From Ignavibacteria bacterium (GTDB lineage Bacteria; Bacteroidota; Ignavibacteria; Tepidaquicellales; Tepidaquicellaceae), in contig JADLKE010000002.1 of NCBI GenBank assembly GCA_015657505.1, forward strand, positions 190,067-254,066: DNA of 64,000 bases, in the 5' to 3' direction. The notes under the pieces are model-generated. The model was not told the origin of the DNA and made no database searches. It worked only from the letters and a program-made list of their open reading frames with translations. The position numbers and the translations under genes are program-made. Position 1 is the stretch's first letter. Every line of letters begins with the position of its first letter. Positions 51,116-56,995 of the stretch are shown in pieces.

Positions 51116-52582
51116 ATGAAAAACACAATAATTTTACTGGCTTTTCTGATGCTGGCGGTTACCGCCTGCGCTCAGAATCCGAACGTGCAGTTAATAGACG
51201 CTTTTCCTGGTCTGACATTCAATAAACCGCTTCATTTCACTCATGCGGGTGACGGCACGAACAGGAATTTCGTCGTTCAGCAGGACGGAAAAATCATCGT
51301 CTTCGCAAACGACTCGAACACCGCGACTTCCAAAGTCTTCCTGAATATTTCGAATAAAATATCATCGTCTTCGGGCGAAGAGGGTTTGCTCGGACTGGCA
51401 TTTCACCCTAACTATCAGTCGAACGGTTATTTTTACGTGAATTACACCGCTCCGTCTCCGCTGCGTACGGTCATTGCAAGGTATAAAGTAAAAACGTCCG
51501 ACCCTGATAAAGCGGACTCTCTCAGCGAATATAAAATACTTGAAATCAATCAGCCGTATTCCAACCATAACGGCGGCACGGTGATGTTTGGTCTCGACGG
51601 TTTTCTTTATATAGGTATGGGTGACGGCGGAAGCGGAGGCGACCCGCAGAACAATGCTCAGAATCTTCAGGTGTTGCTCGGGAAAATGCTTCGCATAAAC
51701 ATTAATGATACGACAGCAACAAAACGATATGTCATACCGAATACAAATCCGTTTTACAACAATCCTTCAGCGGGACGCGAAGAGATATACGCCTGGGGTC
51801 TGAGGAATCCGTGGAAGTTCACGCAGGACGCCGTAACCGGATTGATTTACGTCGGTGACGTCGGGCAGAACAACTGGGAAGAAATCGACATTCTGCAAAA
51901 CGGAAAGAACTACGGTTGGCGGGTTATGGAAGGATTCGCTTGTTATAATCCTTCCTCGGGATGCGATACATCGGGAAAAACACTGCCGATAAAGGTTTAC
52001 GGCCATACAAGCGGCAACTGCTCCGTAACAGGCGGCGCTGTTTACAGGGGCTTACGCAGACCCGAACTAAACGGAGCCTATATATACGGCGATTACTGCT
52101 CGGGCATGGTATGGATGCTTCGATACAATAACGGAACTGTTACTTCGGACTCGCTTCTTGTTCAGAAGAATATCCTGATCAGCGGTATAGGAACGGATAA
52201 AAATAATGAAATGTATTTCATTCACACCGCGGCGACAGGAAAAATCTACAGGTTCAACAAGAGCCCCCTTGCCGGAATTATAAATAATCAGAATCCATCG
52301 CCCGGCAACTTTTATTTGAGTCAGAATTATCCGAATCCGTTCAATCCCGCGACTAAAATAAATTTTTCCGTTCCTAAACGGGTTTTCGTCTCGCTCAATA
52401 TTTATAATTCATCAGGCAAACTTGTAAGGACGCTGGTCAATACTTTTCTTCAGAAAGGAGAGTACGAATTTATCTGGAACGGAACCGACGATTTCAATGC
52501 TCAACAGTCGAGCGGTGTATATTTTTGTAAAATGTCCGCGGAAGATTACGGCGAAACAAAGAAAATGGTGCTGATGAAATAA
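51116..52582 (+). CDS. PQQ-dependent sugar (glucose/sorbosone) dehydrogenase-like beta-propeller with T9SS CTD
   Basis: 488 aa with GLLGLAFHPNY, HNGGTVMFGLDG, GDGGSGGDPQNNAQN, AWGLRNPW and the C-terminal LSQNYPNPFNPATKI...KKMVLMK. Confidence 0.85.
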   Translation: MKNTIILLAFLMLAVTACAQNPNVQLIDAFPGLTFNKPLHFTHAGDGTNRNFVVQQDGKIIVFANDSNTATSKVFLNISNKISSSSGEEGLLGLAFHPNYQSNGYFYVNYTAPSPLRTVIARYKVKTSDPDKADSLSEYKILEINQPYSNHNGGTVMFGLDGFLYIGMGDGGSGGDPQNNAQNLQVLLGKMLRININDTTATKRYVIPNTNPFYNNPSAGREEIYAWGLRNPWKFTQDAVTGLIYVGDVGQNNWEEIDILQNGKNYGWRVMEGFACYNPSSGCDTSGKTLPIKVYGHTSGNCSVTGGAVYRGLRRPELNGAYIYGDYCSGMVWMLRYNNGTVTSDSLLVQKNILISGIGTDKNNEMYFIHTAATGKIYRFNKSPLAGIINNQNPSPGNFYLSQNYPNPFNPATKINFSVPKRVFVSLNIYNSSGKLVRTLVNTFLQKGEYEFIWNGTDDFNAQQSSGVYFCKMSAEDYGETKKMVLMK

Positions 52583-53848
52583 TCAGACGGGAAAAATTCT
52601 CATTCCGAAGTATATTATCGTGAGAGCGATTAGTATTATTACGGTCGACCAGCCAATTATGTTGTTGAACAGTCTGTTCGTGTGATCGCCCATTACTTTC
52701 TTTTTGTTCACTATGAGCATAATCGATACGAGCACTATAGGCAGAAACATTCCGTTAAGAATCTGGGATATGAGTGTAATTTTAATCAGCGGGGCGTTAG
52801 GCATTAGTATTATCGCCATTGAAATTACAAGCATTCCGGTATATAGAATAAAAAATTCCGGCGCCTCTTTCCATTTCTTGTCTATGCCCGCTTCGAAGCC
52901 GAACGCCTCGCAAATGTAGAACGACGCGGCAAGAGGAAGTATAGTAGCCGAAAATATTGACGCTATAAACAGACCGAACGCGAATACCACGGCGGCAAGA
53001 TTGCCTGCAAGAGGCATAAGAGCAAGCGCCGCATCCTTGGCTTCGTTTATTACAACTCCCTGCGGATGCAGCGTCGATGCGCAGGCGACAATTATGAAGA
53101 ACGCCACGACGACGGTTGCAAGGCAGCCGATAATAATGTCGAGAAGTATGTACCTGTAGTTCTCTTTCTTCAATCCTTTTTCGATGACCGATGACTGCAT
53201 GTAAAAAAGCATCCACGGGGCGATTGTCGTACCTATAACTCCTATAACGATTCCTATATAACCCGAATCCACATTTGCTTTCGGGTTTATTATCGAACTT
53301 CCGATTTCGCTCCAGTTTGGATTCCCCATCAGTGCGGATATAATATACATGAAGAGCGCGAGGCTGAATACGATGAACACTCTTTCGGCGATTTTATAAT
53401 TACCCTTTACGACGAGAAACCACACGGCAATTCCCGCCAGCGGAACCGAGATGTACTTGCTGATCCCGAGCACCTCCATGCTGCCCGCAACACCCGCGAA
53501 CTCCGTCGTCGAGTTGCCGATATCGGCAATCAGAAGTCCGAGGAAAATAAAGAAGGTTGTCTTCAAGCCGGAGTTTTCTCTTATGAGGTCGGCAAGTCCC
53601 TTGCCCGTAACCACTCCCATTCTCGCGTTCATTTCCTGAATTACTATCAGAACCACAAAGGCGGGAATGAGCGTCCATATTAGATTGTAGCCGTAAAGCG
53701 CTCCCGCGACTGAATACGTAGTTATGCCGCCTGCGTCGTTGTCCACGCTGCCGGTAATAAGCCCGGGACCGAGTATCGCGAAAAATATCGCGATGTTTCT
53801 GAATAGCGCCCTTCTTCTTGTTCTGAATACTCTCCCGAACATCGTCAC
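52583..53848 (-). CDS. NRAMP-family divalent cation transporter, NRMT-like variant
   Basis: 421 aa with ~11 TM. TM1 reads GPGLITGSVDNDAGG (canonical DPGN replaced by DAGG). TM6 reads GTTIAPWMLFYMQS (canonical MPH replaced by APW). Confidence 0.8.
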   Translation of the reverse strand: MTMFGRVFRTRRRALFRNIAIFFAILGPGLITGSVDNDAGGITTYSVAGALYGYNLIWTLIPAFVVLIVIQEMNARMGVVTGKGLADLIRENSGLKTTFFIFLGLLIADIGNSTTEFAGVAGSMEVLGISKYISVPLAGIAVWFLVVKGNYKIAERVFIVFSLALFMYIISALMGNPNWSEIGSSIINPKANVDSGYIGIVIGVIGTTIAPWMLFYMQSSVIEKGLKKENYRYILLDIIIGCLATVVVAFFIIVACASTLHPQGVVINEAKDAALALMPLAGNLAAVVFAFGLFIASIFSATILPLAASFYICEAFGFEAGIDKKWKEAPEFFILYTGMLVISMAIILMPNAPLIKITLISQILNGMFLPIVLVSIMLIVNKKKVMGDHTNRLFNNIIGWSTVIILIALTIIYFGMRIFPV

Positions 53849-55095
53849 TCCGTCTTCCTTTTATCGAGAAGGTCTTCGACGATGTCGTCGATTACAACGA
53901 CGCCTTCCATTTTCTTCTCGTTGTTTATTACGGGTATTGCCAGAAGATTATATTTTGCGATTATTTCCGCGAGTGAATCAAGTTCATCGTTGTCATAAAC
54001 GTAAGCGACCGTTCTTCTCATTATATCGTTCAAAATCATGTTCGGGTCTGCGATTACAAGATCGCGAAGCGACACGGTTCCTTTAAGCCTGTTATCGTTG
54101 TCAACGACGTACAGATAATAAATCGTATCCGATTCAGGTTTTTCCGTGCGGAGAAATTCGAGCGTATCCTCTACGGTAATATTTTCCTTGAACGAAAGAA
54201 ATTCCGTCATCATCAGGCTTCCGACGGTATCATCCTTATACTGAAGGATTTCCCTGATATCGTCCGACGATTCTTTTTCAATTTCGTTCAGAAGTTGTTC
54301 AGCCTTATCGTCTTCGAGTTCGTCTATCAGGTCGGCGGCTTCGTCGGCGGGCATTTTTTCTATGACGTCGGCGGCCTTTTCGATTGAAAGGCTTTCAATC
54401 ATTTCCACCTGCGCTTCAGGTTCGAGCTCTTCAAGAACATCGGCTGCTTTTTCCTCATCGAGAGATTCGAAGAGCGCTTTGCCCGATTTCTTATCGAGGT
54501 CTTCAATAACGTCGGCGAGGTCCGACGGATGAAGCGTGTGAAGTTTCGTGTAAGGTTTCGAAAGTGTTATGCCGAAAGTTGAGTAATCAACGGCTTCGAC
54601 GTCATCGAAAAGTATGTACCTGCCCGGAACTTTCAGCCTTAGCGGCGAAAGCAATGATGTAACCGGTCTTTCGATTCCGAGTCGTCTGAAAATGCCGTCC
54701 ATTCCGACGTCAACCGCAACGGCGTAGGAGCCTGATGCGATTTTAACGAGCCGAACATCGTTCACACGAACTAATTTACGACCGTTAATATCAAGTATCT
54801 GTTTGTCAAGAATGTTTTCGGCAAGATAAAGAATGTTAGTGCCTTCGGGAATCACGTAATCAACAGGTTCATCGCAGTAAACGACGCAGTCGAACTGTAT
54901 GCGCCGGATGTCGAAATTACTGAAATCGAGAATCCTGTCCTGTCCTTTAATTCTCGCCTTAACCGCTACAACGCGCGGCTTCTCCTTCGAGAACGTCACG
55001 AGAACATCCTTAACTCTGCCGACAGGCTCGCCTGAATTGTCAAAAAATTTCCTGCCGAGGATGTTGCTTAGATAGTATGTGACCAGAAAACTCAT
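53845..55095 (-). CDS. soluble PRC-barrel + MgtE N-domain + CBS-pair protein (no transmembrane domain)
   Basis: 416 aa with two PRC-like repeats (GRKFFDNSGEPVGRVKDV; DINGRKLVRVNDV). The acidic MgtE_N region is HPSDLADVIEDL...AADVLEELEP...AADLIDELE, followed by a CBS pair. 4-nt overlap with the NRAMP gene. Confidence 0.75.
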   Translation of the reverse strand: MSFLVTYYLSNILGRKFFDNSGEPVGRVKDVLVTFSKEKPRVVAVKARIKGQDRILDFSNFDIRRIQFDCVVYCDEPVDYVIPEGTNILYLAENILDKQILDINGRKLVRVNDVRLVKIASGSYAVAVDVGMDGIFRRLGIERPVTSLLSPLRLKVPGRYILFDDVEAVDYSTFGITLSKPYTKLHTLHPSDLADVIEDLDKKSGKALFESLDEEKAADVLEELEPEAQVEMIESLSIEKAADVIEKMPADEAADLIDELEDDKAEQLLNEIEKESSDDIREILQYKDDTVGSLMMTEFLSFKENITVEDTLEFLRTEKPESDTIYYLYVVDNDNRLKGTVSLRDLVIADPNMILNDIMRRTVAYVYDNDELDSLAEIIAKYNLLAIPVINNEKKMEGVVVIDDIVEDLLDKRKTE

Positions 55096-55395
55096 ACTAC
55101 GTAAATTAAAGGTTTCGAAAAATGTTCACGGGATATTTTTCATATCCATAACAAAATAAACGCCGATTTCCGGTTATTGCTTCTGATACGCTGTCGAGGT
55201 GAATACTTTTTTGAATATGACTAATGATACTTTCCGGTTTCTTTATCTATCAGCATGAAGGATGACATATATTATCAGTAACAGCGCAATCGTTTCCGTT
55301 CAAGATACCCAAATATGATTTTTTATTATAGAGAATTTTTCATCCCAAAATATTTTTCCGTCACGAAGTTTATTCTGTATTCAGTTCTTCATTAT

Positions 55396-55421
55396 AATAA
55401 AAAGCCCGCTCACAGCGGGCT
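55396..55421 (-). terminator. rho-independent terminator of the HAL gene
   Basis: AAGCCCGCT-loop-AGCGGGCTT followed by T5 on the minus strand. Confidence 0.8.
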
Positions 55422-55430
55422 TAATATTTT

Positions 55431-55465
55431 TCTTCTAACTACTAACTTCTAACTGCTAACTTCTG
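55431..55465. repeat. short-period (C)TAAC tandem repeat next to a stop codon
   Basis: cttCTAACTAACTAACttCTAACtgCTAACttctg lies 3 nt from the HAL stop codon, between the stop and the terminator. Confidence 0.7.
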
Positions 55466-55468
55466 CTC

Positions 55469-56995
55469 TTAATAGATTTTCAATTCTCCGATTTCCATTT
55501 CCACCGCGTGCAGAATGTCTCTCCTCCTGACGCATGCCATCATGTTGTTGTGGTCTTTGAACAGAGGTCTGTCAATCTCTAGATGCTCTACGACTTTCCT
55601 GACCGCCGTATGCGCCGCTTTTGTTCCCTTGCCTACTTTATATTCCCTGAAGTCAATCGCCTGCGCAGCCGCAATGAATTCGATTCCGAGAATGCCGTAC
55701 GCGTTCTCGAGTATCTGTCTTGTCTTCAACGCAGTGTTCATTCCCATGCTGACGAAGTCTTCCTGGTCGGCCGCGGCGGGAATTGACTGTATCGACGCCG
55801 GCGCCGATAATATTTTCTGTTCTACAATCATCATATCCGCGGTGTACTGGCTGAGCATGTGTCCGGAAAACATTCCCGCGCCTTTTGTAAGGAAGGCAGG
55901 AAGACCGACGCTCAATGCCGGATGAAGCAACCTGTTAAGTCTTCTTTCCGAAAGCACGCAGACCATCGTAACAGCCGCTCCGAGCATGTCGAGAGGCACG
56001 CTTATAGGCGACCCCTGAAAGTTCGCTCCTGTCAGAACAACTTCATCATCGGGCAGGAATATCGGATTGTCTCCGACTCCGTTAAGTTCAATCTCTACCT
56101 GTTCGCGGGTCCATCTTAACTGGTCGCGCGCCGCACCGATAACCTGCGGTGTCGAACGCATCGAATACGCGTCCTGAACCTTAACCTTCACCTTGCCGAG
56201 TAAATCGGAACCGTCAATCATTCTTTTGATGTTTTCCGCAGATGTCACCGCGCCCTTGAAACCTCTCAGCGCGTGGAGTCTCGTATCGTAAGGTTTCATG
56301 TTCGCCATCAATGCTTCGAGGGTCATCGCGGCGGCGATTTCCGCCTGCTTGAGAAGTCTTTCTATTTCATATACCTGCAGACACGCCATCCCGTTAATAA
56401 CGTTGCTTCCGTTGATTGCCGCGAGTCCGTCGCGCGCCTGAAGACCCGGAACGGGTATTCCCGCTTTTTTCAGCGCTTCCGCTGTCGTCATTCTTTCGCC
56501 CTTATAAAATGAATCTCCTTCTCCCATCAGCGATAATGCTATCTGGCTCATAGGCGAAAGGTCTCCGCATGCGCCCACGCTGCCCTTCATGCAGGTGACG
56601 GGCGTTACGCCCTTGTTCAGCATGTCAACATACGTCTGTGTGATGACGGGACGGCAGCCCGAGTTACCGTTCGCGTGAACGTTAATGCGGGCGAGCATCG
56701 CCGCGCGGACTATCTCTATCGGGAAAGGTTCGCCGATACCTGCCGCATGGTTGTATATAAGAAATTTCTGGAATTCCTTAACCTGTTCGTCGTTAAGCAC
56801 CACGTTCGCGAGTTCGCCAATTCCAGTGTTAACTCCGTACATTATCTCCTTCGCTACAATTCTTTTTTCAAGAAATCCCCTGCATTTTATTATTCGCGCT
56901 ACCGCGTCAGGATGAAGTTCAACTTTCTCTCCGTTTACCGCAACGTTGTAAACATCCTCGATTTTCAGATTCTTACCTGTGATTATTACCGGCAT
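55469..56995 (-). CDS. hutH: histidine ammonia-lyase family (MIO-dependent aromatic amino acid lyase) with Ala-Cys-Gly at the MIO position
   Basis: 508 aa with YGVNTGIG, NHAAGIG and GSVGACGDLSPM (canonical GSVGASGDLAPL). Confidence 0.8.
   Translation of the reverse strand: MPVIITGKNLKIEDVYNVAVNGEKVELHPDAVARIIKCRGFLEKRIVAKEIMYGVNTGIGELANVVLNDEQVKEFQKFLIYNHAAGIGEPFPIEIVRAAMLARINVHANGNSGCRPVITQTYVDMLNKGVTPVTCMKGSVGACGDLSPMSQIALSLMGEGDSFYKGERMTTAEALKKAGIPVPGLQARDGLAAINGSNVINGMACLQVYEIERLLKQAEIAAAMTLEALMANMKPYDTRLHALRGFKGAVTSAENIKRMIDGSDLLGKVKVKVQDAYSMRSTPQVIGAARDQLRWTREQVEIELNGVGDNPIFLPDDEVVLTGANFQGSPISVPLDMLGAAVTMVCVLSERRLNRLLHPALSVGLPAFLTKGAGMFSGHMLSQYTADMMIVEQKILSAPASIQSIPAAADQEDFVSMGMNTALKTRQILENAYGILGIEFIAAAQAIDFREYKVGKGTKAAHTAVRKVVEHLEIDRPLFKDHNNMMACVRRRDILHAVEMEIGELKIY

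Follow-up and report, generated by a model that had tools for sequence, protein, structure and literature searches.

NRMTs, importers of the NRAMP family, seem to carry Mg2+ uncoupled from protons, which raises the question of how cells that rely on them avoid Mg2+ overload. In a two-gene operon of an Ignavibacteria bacterium, a probable NRAMP-family Mg2+ importer has a soluble partner of the MgtE-sensor type encoded directly 5' of it. This partner, near-universally linked to NRMT genes, is an obvious candidate for preventing overload. The window, i.e. the whole stretch of DNA analysed, spans 64,000 nt of contig JADLKE010000002.1 (GCA_015657505.1, positions 190,067–254,066), and all coordinates here, like those of the preliminary description of this locus, are window positions.

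The preliminary description knew of no account of such a pairing, but Shin et al. (2014, PLoS Genet, PMC4072509) had published both the pairing and the idea of feedback. They found that most NrmT genes adjoin a homologue of the MgtE cytoplasmic domain, referred to “mgtE-nramp operons” (their Fig. S5), and speculated that the partner gives “cytoplasmic feedback regulation of transport”. Our partner gene resembles theirs in its homology to the cytoplasmic domain of MgtE (here MgtE_N plus a CBS pair) and in its same-strand adjacency to nrmT, and the locus is another example of the published pairing, not a discovery. What we add is a tandem PRC-barrel in the partner, previously undescribed and strongly conserved, a distribution complementary to that of MgtE, a near-absolute linkage in two gene orders, and the retention of Mg4/Mg6 sensor residues despite loss of the plug helix and pore. 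Conserved residues and strains for probing the partner’s role are also now specified.

The features of the operon are collected in Table 1. At the junction of the two genes (...GGA GTG ACG ATG), the partner’s TGA stop shares 4 nt with the transporter’s GTG start, which is the overlap reported in the preliminary description. One caveat is an in-frame ATG two codons further in; if the transporter started there, the genes would be separated by a 2-nt spacer and would not overlap. In orthologues the gap is mostly between -10 and +22 nt, so tight linkage is conserved while the exact 4-nt overlap is not. The strong terminator 5' of the operon, which was counted in favour of a single transcription unit, is also a sub-threshold Rfam match to Trp_leader (29.5 bits vs a gathering score of 41).

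Table 1. Features of the NRMT-partner operon and its upstream boundary (window positions).
Feature	Position	Strand	Evidence or detail
Intrinsic terminator of the HAL-family gene, upstream boundary of the operon	55402..55422	-	9-bp stem with 6 GC pairs, then T run
Promoter and leader, ~300 nt	55096..55401	-	AT-rich (GC 0.35)
Partner gene, 416 aa, PRC - PRC - MgtE_N - CBS - CBS	53845..55095	-	ORF, Pfam, structure search; best PDB sequence match 2yvy (E 8e-41)
Tandem PRC-barrel module, residues 1-182	54550..55095	-	Pfam PRC, internal repeat, AF2 model, Foldseek
MgtE_N acidic helical domain, residues 188-289	54229..54534	-	Pfam (E 3e-26)
CBS pair, residues 291-413	53857..54225	-	Pfam (two CBS, E 4e-16), alignment to MgtE, Foldseek
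GTGA overlap of partner stop and transporter start	53845..53848	-	Sequence
NRMT-clade NRAMP transporter gene, 421 aa	52583..53848	-	Pfam Nramp, PDB match, tree, hydropathy
TM1 metal-site motif D38-A-G-G41, DxxG form	53726..53737	-	Alignment; motif definition PMC8806188
TM6 metal-site motif T207-T-I-A210-P-W212, TxxA form	53213..53230	-	Alignment; motif definition PMC8806188

The transporter matches the Pfam Nramp family (PF01566) over profile positions 1–356 of 357 (E 8e-93) and has about 11 hydrophobic segments. Its best match in the PDB is EleNRMT (7qia, E 5e-110), to which it aligns without gaps over 402 residues at 45% identity; DraNramp reaches only 2e-29. TM1 reads DNDAGGI and TM6 reads GTTIAPWM, the same pattern as in EleNRMT, whereas the corresponding motifs are DPGN and MPH in DraNramp and in the second Nramp gene of the host genome. 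The features that set NRMTs apart are DxxG in helix 1, TxxA in helix 6 and loss of the proton-pathway His on helix 6b (PMC8806188). By alignment, D38, G41, T207, A210, E116 and Q362 of the transporter correspond to D55, G58, T224, A227, E133 and Q379 of EleNRMT, all residues named in that study. The canonical Met of TM6 has become Ala, the first helix-6b His has become Trp, and W212 and M217 together occupy the positions of DraNramp’s two helix-6b His.

The maximum-likelihood tree, which was built without ACP2977 of A. capsulatum, has the transporter in a clade (support 98/99) whose sister is EleNRMT (95/87), with the DPGN/MPH NRAMPs well removed from both. In the same tree, the transporter belongs to a 12-row clade (95/93) together with both orthologues that are controlled by an M-box riboswitch, which are 69% identical to it. 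The transporter thus combines an Nramp fold with DxxG, TxxA/T, helix-6b His loss and grouping with EleNRMT; in place of the DPGN of helix 1 and the A/CxxM and His of helix 6 that mark canonical NRAMP/MntH proteins it has DAGG and TTIAPW, and its NCBIfam MntH score is 135 bits against a cut-off of 430. Alignment and tree bear out the preliminary description, which had set DAGG and IAPW against the canonical DPGN and MPH, assigned the transporter to the NRMT type and called for a phylogeny to separate it from Mn2+/Fe2+ NRAMPs. As a sequence-based assignment, the NRMT type is well supported, and Mg2+ is probably the main substrate.

In the partner, Pfam detects a PRC domain at residues 6–62 (E 2.5e-6) ahead of the MgtE_N and CBS domains, and no MgtE membrane domain (PF01769). 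A second PRC copy is revealed by an internal repeat (residues 5–51 vs 88–134, 30% identity, E 2e-4), and the MgtE_N segment is acidic, with 36 D+E vs 10 K+R among 102 residues. With a maximum Kyte–Doolittle hydropathy of 1.30 over 19 residues, the protein has no predicted TM helix. Two PRC-like repeats, an acidic MgtE N-domain and a CBS pair with no membrane domain had all been recognized in the preliminary description. The AF2 model of residues 1–182 (pLDDT 89, pTM 0.84) finds CdpB1/CdpB2 (8qzo) as its best Foldseek match (E 6e-7, TM 0.57–0.68), followed by RimM and the reaction-centre H subunit, so that the PRC-barrel fold (PF05239) is present in two copies, the first by Pfam as well as by repeat and model. 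This modelled likeness suggests that the module may serve in protein docking. The C-terminal half superposes on the cytosolic domains of MgtE with TM 0.81–0.90 and rmsd 2.2–2.5 Å. The partner ends before the plug helix and has neither PF01769, nor a pore Asp, nor a hydrophobic segment, and it is therefore not an MgtE channel. That it is a detached, pore-less cytosolic module of the MgtE type is well supported by sequence, fold, phylogeny and near-universal gene linkage.

This linkage was followed across about ten phyla. The partner ORF lies directly upstream of the transporter in 76 of 80 orthologous loci, and the remaining 4 are cut by contig ends, leaving 76/76 informative loci. The same order is found in 12/12 tier-1 relatives in a sample of 401 genomes. 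In a second NRMT clade (tier 2), the partner is directly downstream in 34/36 loci, and among the matches listed every one that includes the PRC region adjoins an NRMT gene. The linkage of partner and NRMT is essentially absolute in both gene orders, and the co-occurrence that the preliminary description had proposed to check is confirmed. Within the partner, PRC2 is the most invariant part, above the MgtE part; L91, D97, Q99, K107, R110-V-N-D113, D129, G134, R137 and R138 form a block that is unchanged in 52/52 tier-1 partners. When 1.84 billion representatives were searched with a profile of the PRC module, the best 150 matches contained no natural partner–NRMT fusion, none being longer than 656 aa. 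Of five scanned relatives of about 600 aa, all have the partner’s domains and four have a membrane domain of the MgtE type as well.

We mapped the Mg2+-sensing residues through an alignment to MgtE, using the site list from PMC5882242. In the MgtE_N domain, D219, D251 and D255 correspond to E59 (Mg7), D91 (Mg4) and D95 (Mg6) of MgtE; in the CBS pair, D404 corresponds to D247 (Mg4), N383 to D226 and E407/D408 to D250. D255 and D404 are invariant among the tier-1 partners (n = 52), D251 is found in 47/52 and D219 in 44/52. At the level of aligned residues, then, sites Mg4 and Mg6 of MgtE are conserved in the partner. The Mg5 residue D226 is replaced by Asn, the substitution used for disabling Mg5 in MgtE (PMC5882242), and a basic tail, KRKTE, ends the protein at the place of the plug helix, whose sites Mg2 and Mg3 are absent.

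Taken together, we lean towards a bicistronic Mg2+ uptake system in which the NRMT is the importer and the partner a Mg2+-sensing brake acting in trans, and give this reading somewhat better than an even chance. The NRMT replacements (Asn to Gly, Met to Ala, Ala to Thr) widen the metal site, and the transporter lacks the proton-pathway His; by analogy with EleNRMT, uptake would be of largely hydrated Mg2+ (and Mn2+) and would not be coupled to H+. A conserved acidic clamp between the N and CBS domains would let the partner read cytosolic Mg2+, and the CBS pair might also bind ATP. The PRC module, the basic C-terminal tail or both may dock the partner on the cytoplasmic face of the transporter. 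Once Mg2+ is sufficient, the partner would slow or block transport, which is what these domains do in cis within MgtE. We infer both the physical interaction of the two proteins and the direction of regulation.

Several observations count against this model. The NrmTs of Clostridium needed no partner to rescue Mg2+ transport (PMC4072509), and EleNRMT was solved and assayed as a partner-less monomer (PMC8806188). The sensing apparatus of MgtE is also partly missing from our partner, with Asn at Mg5 and no Mg2 or Mg3, and tier-2 partners have lost D251. Co-expression of the A. capsulatum partner gave no better rescue, and its transporter ACP2977 carried mainly Mn2+ (PMC4072509). Since better rescue at low Mg2+ is not what a feedback inhibitor should bring, the co-expression result is weak counter-evidence.

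The partner could instead promote transport, either as an activator or energy-status gate whose CBS pair binds ATP or other adenylates and licenses the NRMT when demand for Mg-ATP is high, or as an obligatory subunit without which the transporter is not fully active in the native host. The CBS pair superposes on the ATP-bound cytosolic domain of MgtE (5x9g), and R344/D345 align with MgtE R187/D188, which we take to contact ATP; R is kept in 47/52 tier-1 partners and D or E in 43/52. The tight stop/start coupling also suggests near-equal production of the two proteins. We nevertheless consider such a role unlikely, since transport without a partner by NrmTs and EleNRMT speaks against it, and the residues that are invariant are the acidic Mg4/Mg6 equivalents, which points to metal sensing.

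The case for Mg2+ as the cargo draws on riboswitches and on the inventory of transporters. M-box riboswitches accompany Firmicutes orthologues, lying 5' of the partner gene in the orthologous loci L091 (150 bits) and L058 (103 bits). The host genome has no match to PF01769 or PF01544 (CorA), no MgtA above the cut-off and no M-box, so the pair is probably its main route of Mg2+ entry, although at 95% completeness the absence of another importer is not proven. MgtE was not found in 9/13 tier-1, 10/34 tier-2 and 22/354 other genomes, and CorA is also missing in G000, G061, G073, G189, G231, G261 and G310. The NRMT–partner pair and MgtE thus have a complementary distribution, with genomes that carry the pair often lacking MgtE and sometimes also CorA.

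The leader of the operon itself carries no recognizable riboswitch. An Rfam scan of 52000–56000 at E<=1 found neither an M-box nor any other riboswitch, returning only the HAL terminator (as Trp_leader) and a chance match to twister; an Rfam search of the whole genome for the M-box was negative, and the leader RNA is no more stably folded than shuffled controls (z 0.10). A leader riboswitch was rejected on these grounds, and the preliminary description had likewise seen no M-box or Mn riboswitch in the 300-nt leader. Sequence conservation of the leader extends to the nearest relative, L018, and no further. A small leader ORF, MDMKNIP* (55126–55149), is unlike the MNI* that L018 has at the same place and, not being conserved, was rejected for this locus. 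The leader also contains a palindrome, GGATAT-N5-ATATCC (55131–55147), a putative regulon operator; it is the only exact copy in the genome, which has 13 further copies with one mismatch.

A second alternative is a transporter that imports mainly Mn2+, as ACP2977 of A. capsulatum does, with a partner that responds to this ion. The A. capsulatum pair, likewise devoid of a riboswitch, rescued Mn2+ rather than Mg2+ transport (PMC4072509), EleNRMT carries Mn2+ as well (PMC8806188), and the window is without an M-box. However, a canonical DPGN/MPH Nramp is already available to the host for Mn2+, no other Mg2+ importer is recognizable in its genome, and the 12-row clade unites the transporter with M-box-controlled orthologues. 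The metal site is moreover identical to EleNRMT’s, with T207, a residue required for Mg2+ (PMC8806188), among the matches, and we regard a mainly Mn2+-carrying transporter as rather improbable.

Least probable, in our estimate, is a partner that does not gate the transporter but serves as a cytosolic Mg2+ buffer or chaperone (the latter raised by Shin et al., PMC4072509) or couples Mg2+ status to other machinery through its PRC barrels, for while such barrels bind the ribosome (RimM) and division proteins (CdpB), the nearest structural neighbours of the module are protein–protein adaptors, and PRC2 rather than the MgtE part is most invariant, the PRC-bearing partner is found, among the matches listed, only beside NRMT genes and in two gene orders, which makes direct cooperation with the transporter the simplest explanation, and in the ~600-aa relatives the module is joined to a membrane domain of the MgtE type and so works at the membrane.

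The brake model can be taken a step further, though only tentatively. The invariant tandem PRC-barrel (D97, Q99, K107, R110-V-N-D113, D129, R137, R138) might be a docking or plug module through which an MgtE-derived sensor gates a LeuT-fold carrier in trans, with the pair as the sole Mg2+ route in several Ignavibacteria, where it would have replaced MgtE and CorA. If true, regulation by a subunit of this kind would be a principle that no NRAMP has yet been shown to follow.

Among known systems, the closest are the operons of Shin et al. (C. acetobutylicum Ca_c0685; A. capsulatum ACP2976/ACP2977), which have the same two-gene design with the partner upstream and whose M-box-controlled members fall on the same branch as the present transporter. 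Our operon differs in having no M-box and an Ignavibacteria host, and in PMC4072509 the partner is described as a small N-terminal fragment of MgtE, with no mention of PRC-barrels or CBS domains. EleNRMT of Eggerthella lenta (PDB 7QIA/7QIC/7QJI/7QJJ; Ramanadane et al. 2022, PMC8806188) shares with our transporter the DxxG and TxxA motifs, the helix-3 Glu, the helix-10 Gln and a Trp for the first helix-6b His. The second helix-6b His is Asn in EleNRMT and Met here, and EleNRMT was studied alone, in a paper that mentions no partner protein. The archaeal tandem PRC-barrels CdpB1/CdpB2 (8QZO), RimM and the reaction-centre H subunit have the fold of partner residues 1–182, but identity is only 10–13% and their context is unrelated. 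MgtE of Thermus thermophilus (2YVX/2ZY9/5X9H) has the same N-domain and CBS fold, and the partner retains its acidic residues at Mg4, Mg6 and Mg7; unlike MgtE, the partner has no plug helix, membrane domain or pore Asp, has Asn for D226 and has gained two N-terminal PRC-barrels. Whereas the MgtE sensor acts in cis, that of the partner would have to work in trans, its target being an unrelated carrier of the LeuT fold.

The transporter (gene B) matches the Pfam Nramp family over its full length (E = 8e-93) and scores far below the cut-off of NCBIfam MntH (135 bits against 430). Its best solved relative is EleNRMT, the Mg2+ transporter of Eggerthella lenta (7qia, E = 5e-110; 45% identity over 402 residues with zero gaps); for the canonical DraNramp, E is 2e-29. 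NRMTs are defined by DxxG in helix 1 and TxxA/T in helix 6, replacing DxxN and A/CxxM, and the key residues of EleNRMT are D55, G58, T224, E133 and Q379 (Ramanadane et al. 2022, PMC8806188). In gene B, D38, G41, T207, A210, E116 and Q362 align exactly with NRMT key positions, and W212 occupies the site of the first helix-6b histidine. In a maximum-likelihood tree of gene B, EleNRMT, DraNramp, the genome's second Nramp and several same-phylum clades, with A. capsulatum and C. acetobutylicum sequences left out, the gene B clade (support 98/99) and EleNRMT are sisters (95/87). The canonical DPGN/MPH sequences, including the genome's other Nramp (L001), are distant. Within the Nramp family, gene B thus belongs to the NRMT type; both the alignment and the phylogeny agree with the NRMT-like TM1 and TM6 substitutions read in the preliminary description.

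In the partner (gene A), Pfam places a PRC domain at residues 6-62, MgtE_N at 188-289 and two CBS domains at 291-413. Neither an MgtE membrane domain (Pfam) nor a segment hydrophobic enough for a membrane helix (hydropathy) was found. Its best PDB sequence match is the MgtE cytosolic domain 2yvy (E = 8e-41), and its AF2 model (pLDDT 83) overlays the cytosolic domains of MgtE (TM 0.81-0.90, rmsd 2.2-2.5 A). The N-terminal 182 residues, modelled alone (pLDDT 89, pTM 0.84), fold into two PRC-barrels, detectably related in sequence, with a short extension of helical and beta structure behind them. The tandem PRC proteins CdpB1/CdpB2 (8qzo) are the best structural matches of this module, with RimM and the reaction-centre H subunit next. 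The initial reading of two PRC-like repeats, an MgtE N-domain and a CBS pair on a soluble protein therefore held.

A profile search with the PRC module returned 2,320 clusters; most proteins are about 404-450 aa long, and a further set has about 600 aa. Five members of the longer set were scanned; all five contain PRC, MgtE_N and CBS, and four have a weak MgtE-type membrane domain. In P0191, P0231, P0239 and P0246 (595-656 aa) this domain scores 37-62 bits, compared with about 130 bits in ordinary MgtE genes, and these proteins may be an ancestral or membrane-anchored form of the soluble partner.

Genes A and B are a separate two-gene unit, since the upstream HAL-family gene has its own terminator and a convergent gene lies downstream. 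At their junction, GGA GTG ACG ATG, the TGA stop of gene A shares 4 nt with the GTG start of gene B, the overlap originally described; an alternative ATG start lies two codons downstream of the GTG. Neither spacer nor terminator separates the stop codons of gene B and the convergent gene. The pair is preceded by a leader, AT-rich and about 300 nt long, in which fold analysis found no unusual RNA structure. As on first reading, the leader shows no M-box, and there is none elsewhere in the window or in the rest of the genome. Nor did this locus give support for a small acidic ORF in the leader. The leader does contain a perfect palindrome, the sole exact copy genome-wide. At the equivalent position, the nearest relative (L018) has GAATAT-CTGAAA-ATATTC, so both arms changed together; the element could be a small hairpin or operator.

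Features of the partner-transporter operon and its surroundings (window positions)
Feature	Position	Strand	Remarks
Gene A (partner)	55095 to 53845	-	ORF, 416 aa
Gene B (transporter)	53848 to 52583	-	ORF, 421 aa, GTG start
HAL-family gene, end	55469		upstream of operon
GTTAG-type short repeats	55431-55465		between HAL stop codon and HAL terminator
Strong terminator	55422-55402		after HAL-family gene
Palindrome GGATAT-GAAAA-ATATCC	55131-55147	-	36-52 nt upstream of partner ATG
Convergent gene, GSDH-like/T9SS-tailed	ends 52582		downstream of gene B
Abutting stop codons	52580-52585		TAA of convergent gene, then transporter TGA (52583-52585, minus strand)

The adjacency of partner and NRMT, first seen in this one genome, is conserved almost without exception. 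Scanning the NRMT alignment against 185,579 species genomes gave 80 loci (63-88% identity) from Ignavibacteria, Bacteroidales, Prolixibacteraceae, Chitinophagaceae and Spirochaetaceae, as well as Omnitrophota, Verrucomicrobiota, Bdellovibrionales, Desulfosporosinus, Clostridium and Bacilli. A full partner ORF lies immediately 5' of the transporter on the same strand in seventy-six of these, with gaps mostly of -10 to +22 nt, and contig ends cut the remaining four. Within a 401-genome sample of the phylum, the 12 other genomes whose orthologue is 62-68% identical (tier 1) all have the partner directly upstream. A second NRMT clade with about 36% identity and the same DAGG/TTIAPW site (tier 2) has it immediately downstream in 34 of 36 loci, the gap being about 240 nt. 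This second clade (L012-L017, e.g. G310:C59:19677-22356, and thirty further loci) comes mostly from one large family of the phylum. Among the matches listed for the phylum sample, all that include the PRC region adjoin an NRMT gene, and ordinary MgtE genes match partner residues 185-411 only. Neither of two other Nramp-family clades of the phylum (L107-L120; sites DDDPSG/TTISPY and FIGPGT/TTVVPY) has a partner or any MgtE-like neighbour. In the FIGPGT/GTTVVPY clade, the helix-1 Asp that is universal elsewhere is missing.

The Mg2+ sites of T. thermophilus MgtE are Mg4 (D91/D247), Mg5 (D226/D250), Mg6 (D95) and Mg7 (E59), and further Mg2 (E258), Mg3 (D259) and Mg1 (D432) (PMC5882242). We transferred them to the partner via its PDB sequence-match alignment and counted conservation in fifty-two tier-1 partners. 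Acidic residues of the Mg4, Mg6 and Mg7 types are retained: D255 (MgtE D95) and D404 (D247) in 52/52, D251 (D91) in 47/52 and D219 (E59) in 44/52. At Mg5, D226 corresponds to N383, with Asn in 39/52; a D226N change served to disable this site in MgtE (PMC5882242). The partner's C-terminus, a basic KRKTE tail, ends where MgtE's acidic plug helix begins, so the partner lacks Mg2, Mg3 and the pore site Mg1. It thus keeps the acidic N/CBS clamp of MgtE but not the elements with which MgtE acts on its own pore. The most invariant stretch of the family is the second PRC-barrel (D97, Q99, K107, R110-V-N-D113, D129, G134, R137 and R138, each 52/52). Tier-2 partners lack the D91 equivalent and several of these residues.

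Two Firmicutes orthologues, each 69% identical, have M-box riboswitches, scoring well over threshold, immediately before the partner gene, consistent with Shin et al. (2014, PMC4072509). In the present genome (3.24 Mb, three contigs, 95% complete), no MgtE membrane domain, CorA or MgtA was found above cut-off; it has one canonical Nramp and one CNNM/CorC-type gene, whose product is probably an exporter. Across the phylum sample, MgtE was not found in 9/13 tier-1 genomes, 10/34 tier-2 genomes and 22/354 others, counts that are descriptive and not a statistical test because relatives are not independent. CorA was also not found in six of the nine MgtE-less tier-1 genomes and in one tier-2 genome. 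This pattern fits a pair able to act as the main importer of Mg2+. In one relative, G245, the partner-NRMT operon (G245:C6:25826-28316) has a CorA gene (G245:C6:20670-21500) about 4 kb upstream on the same strand, a hint of a small neighbourhood for Mg2+ transport.

Cytosolic Mg2+-sensing domains act as a brake in both MgtE and CorA. An uncoupled, membrane-potential-driven Mg2+ carrier would need a brake, which argues for the partner as an inhibitor: it would bind the transporter, probably via the PRC module or the basic tail, and inhibit transport at high cytosolic Mg2+. The pair may instead be a Mn2+ system, as in A. capsulatum. In the one pair that Shin et al. tested, ACP2976/ACP2977, the transporter mainly carried Mn2+ and the partner did not improve Mg2+ rescue (PMC4072509). 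The partner might also be an ATP- or energy-dependent activator. A last alternative would make it a buffer or adaptor with a role unrelated to gating. Regulation of the NRMT in trans by the partner, as the preliminary description proposed, is plausible.

That description took the pairing of an NRMT with a soluble MgtE-type protein to be undescribed. This was wrong: Shin et al. (2014, PMC4072509) reported that most NrmT genes adjoin a gene for a homologue of the cytoplasmic domain of MgtE, drew "mgtE-nramp operons" in their Fig. S5, and proposed cytoplasmic feedback regulation or else chaperone activity for the neighbour. The observed operon is confirmed, and its feedback interpretation was already published. 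Our literature search found no paper combining "PRC-barrel" with "MgtE", and the EleNRMT structure paper (PMC8806188) does not mention any partner protein. Shin et al. (PMC4072509) make no mention of PRC-barrels or CBS domains; the core of the pairing in their operons is the same as here.
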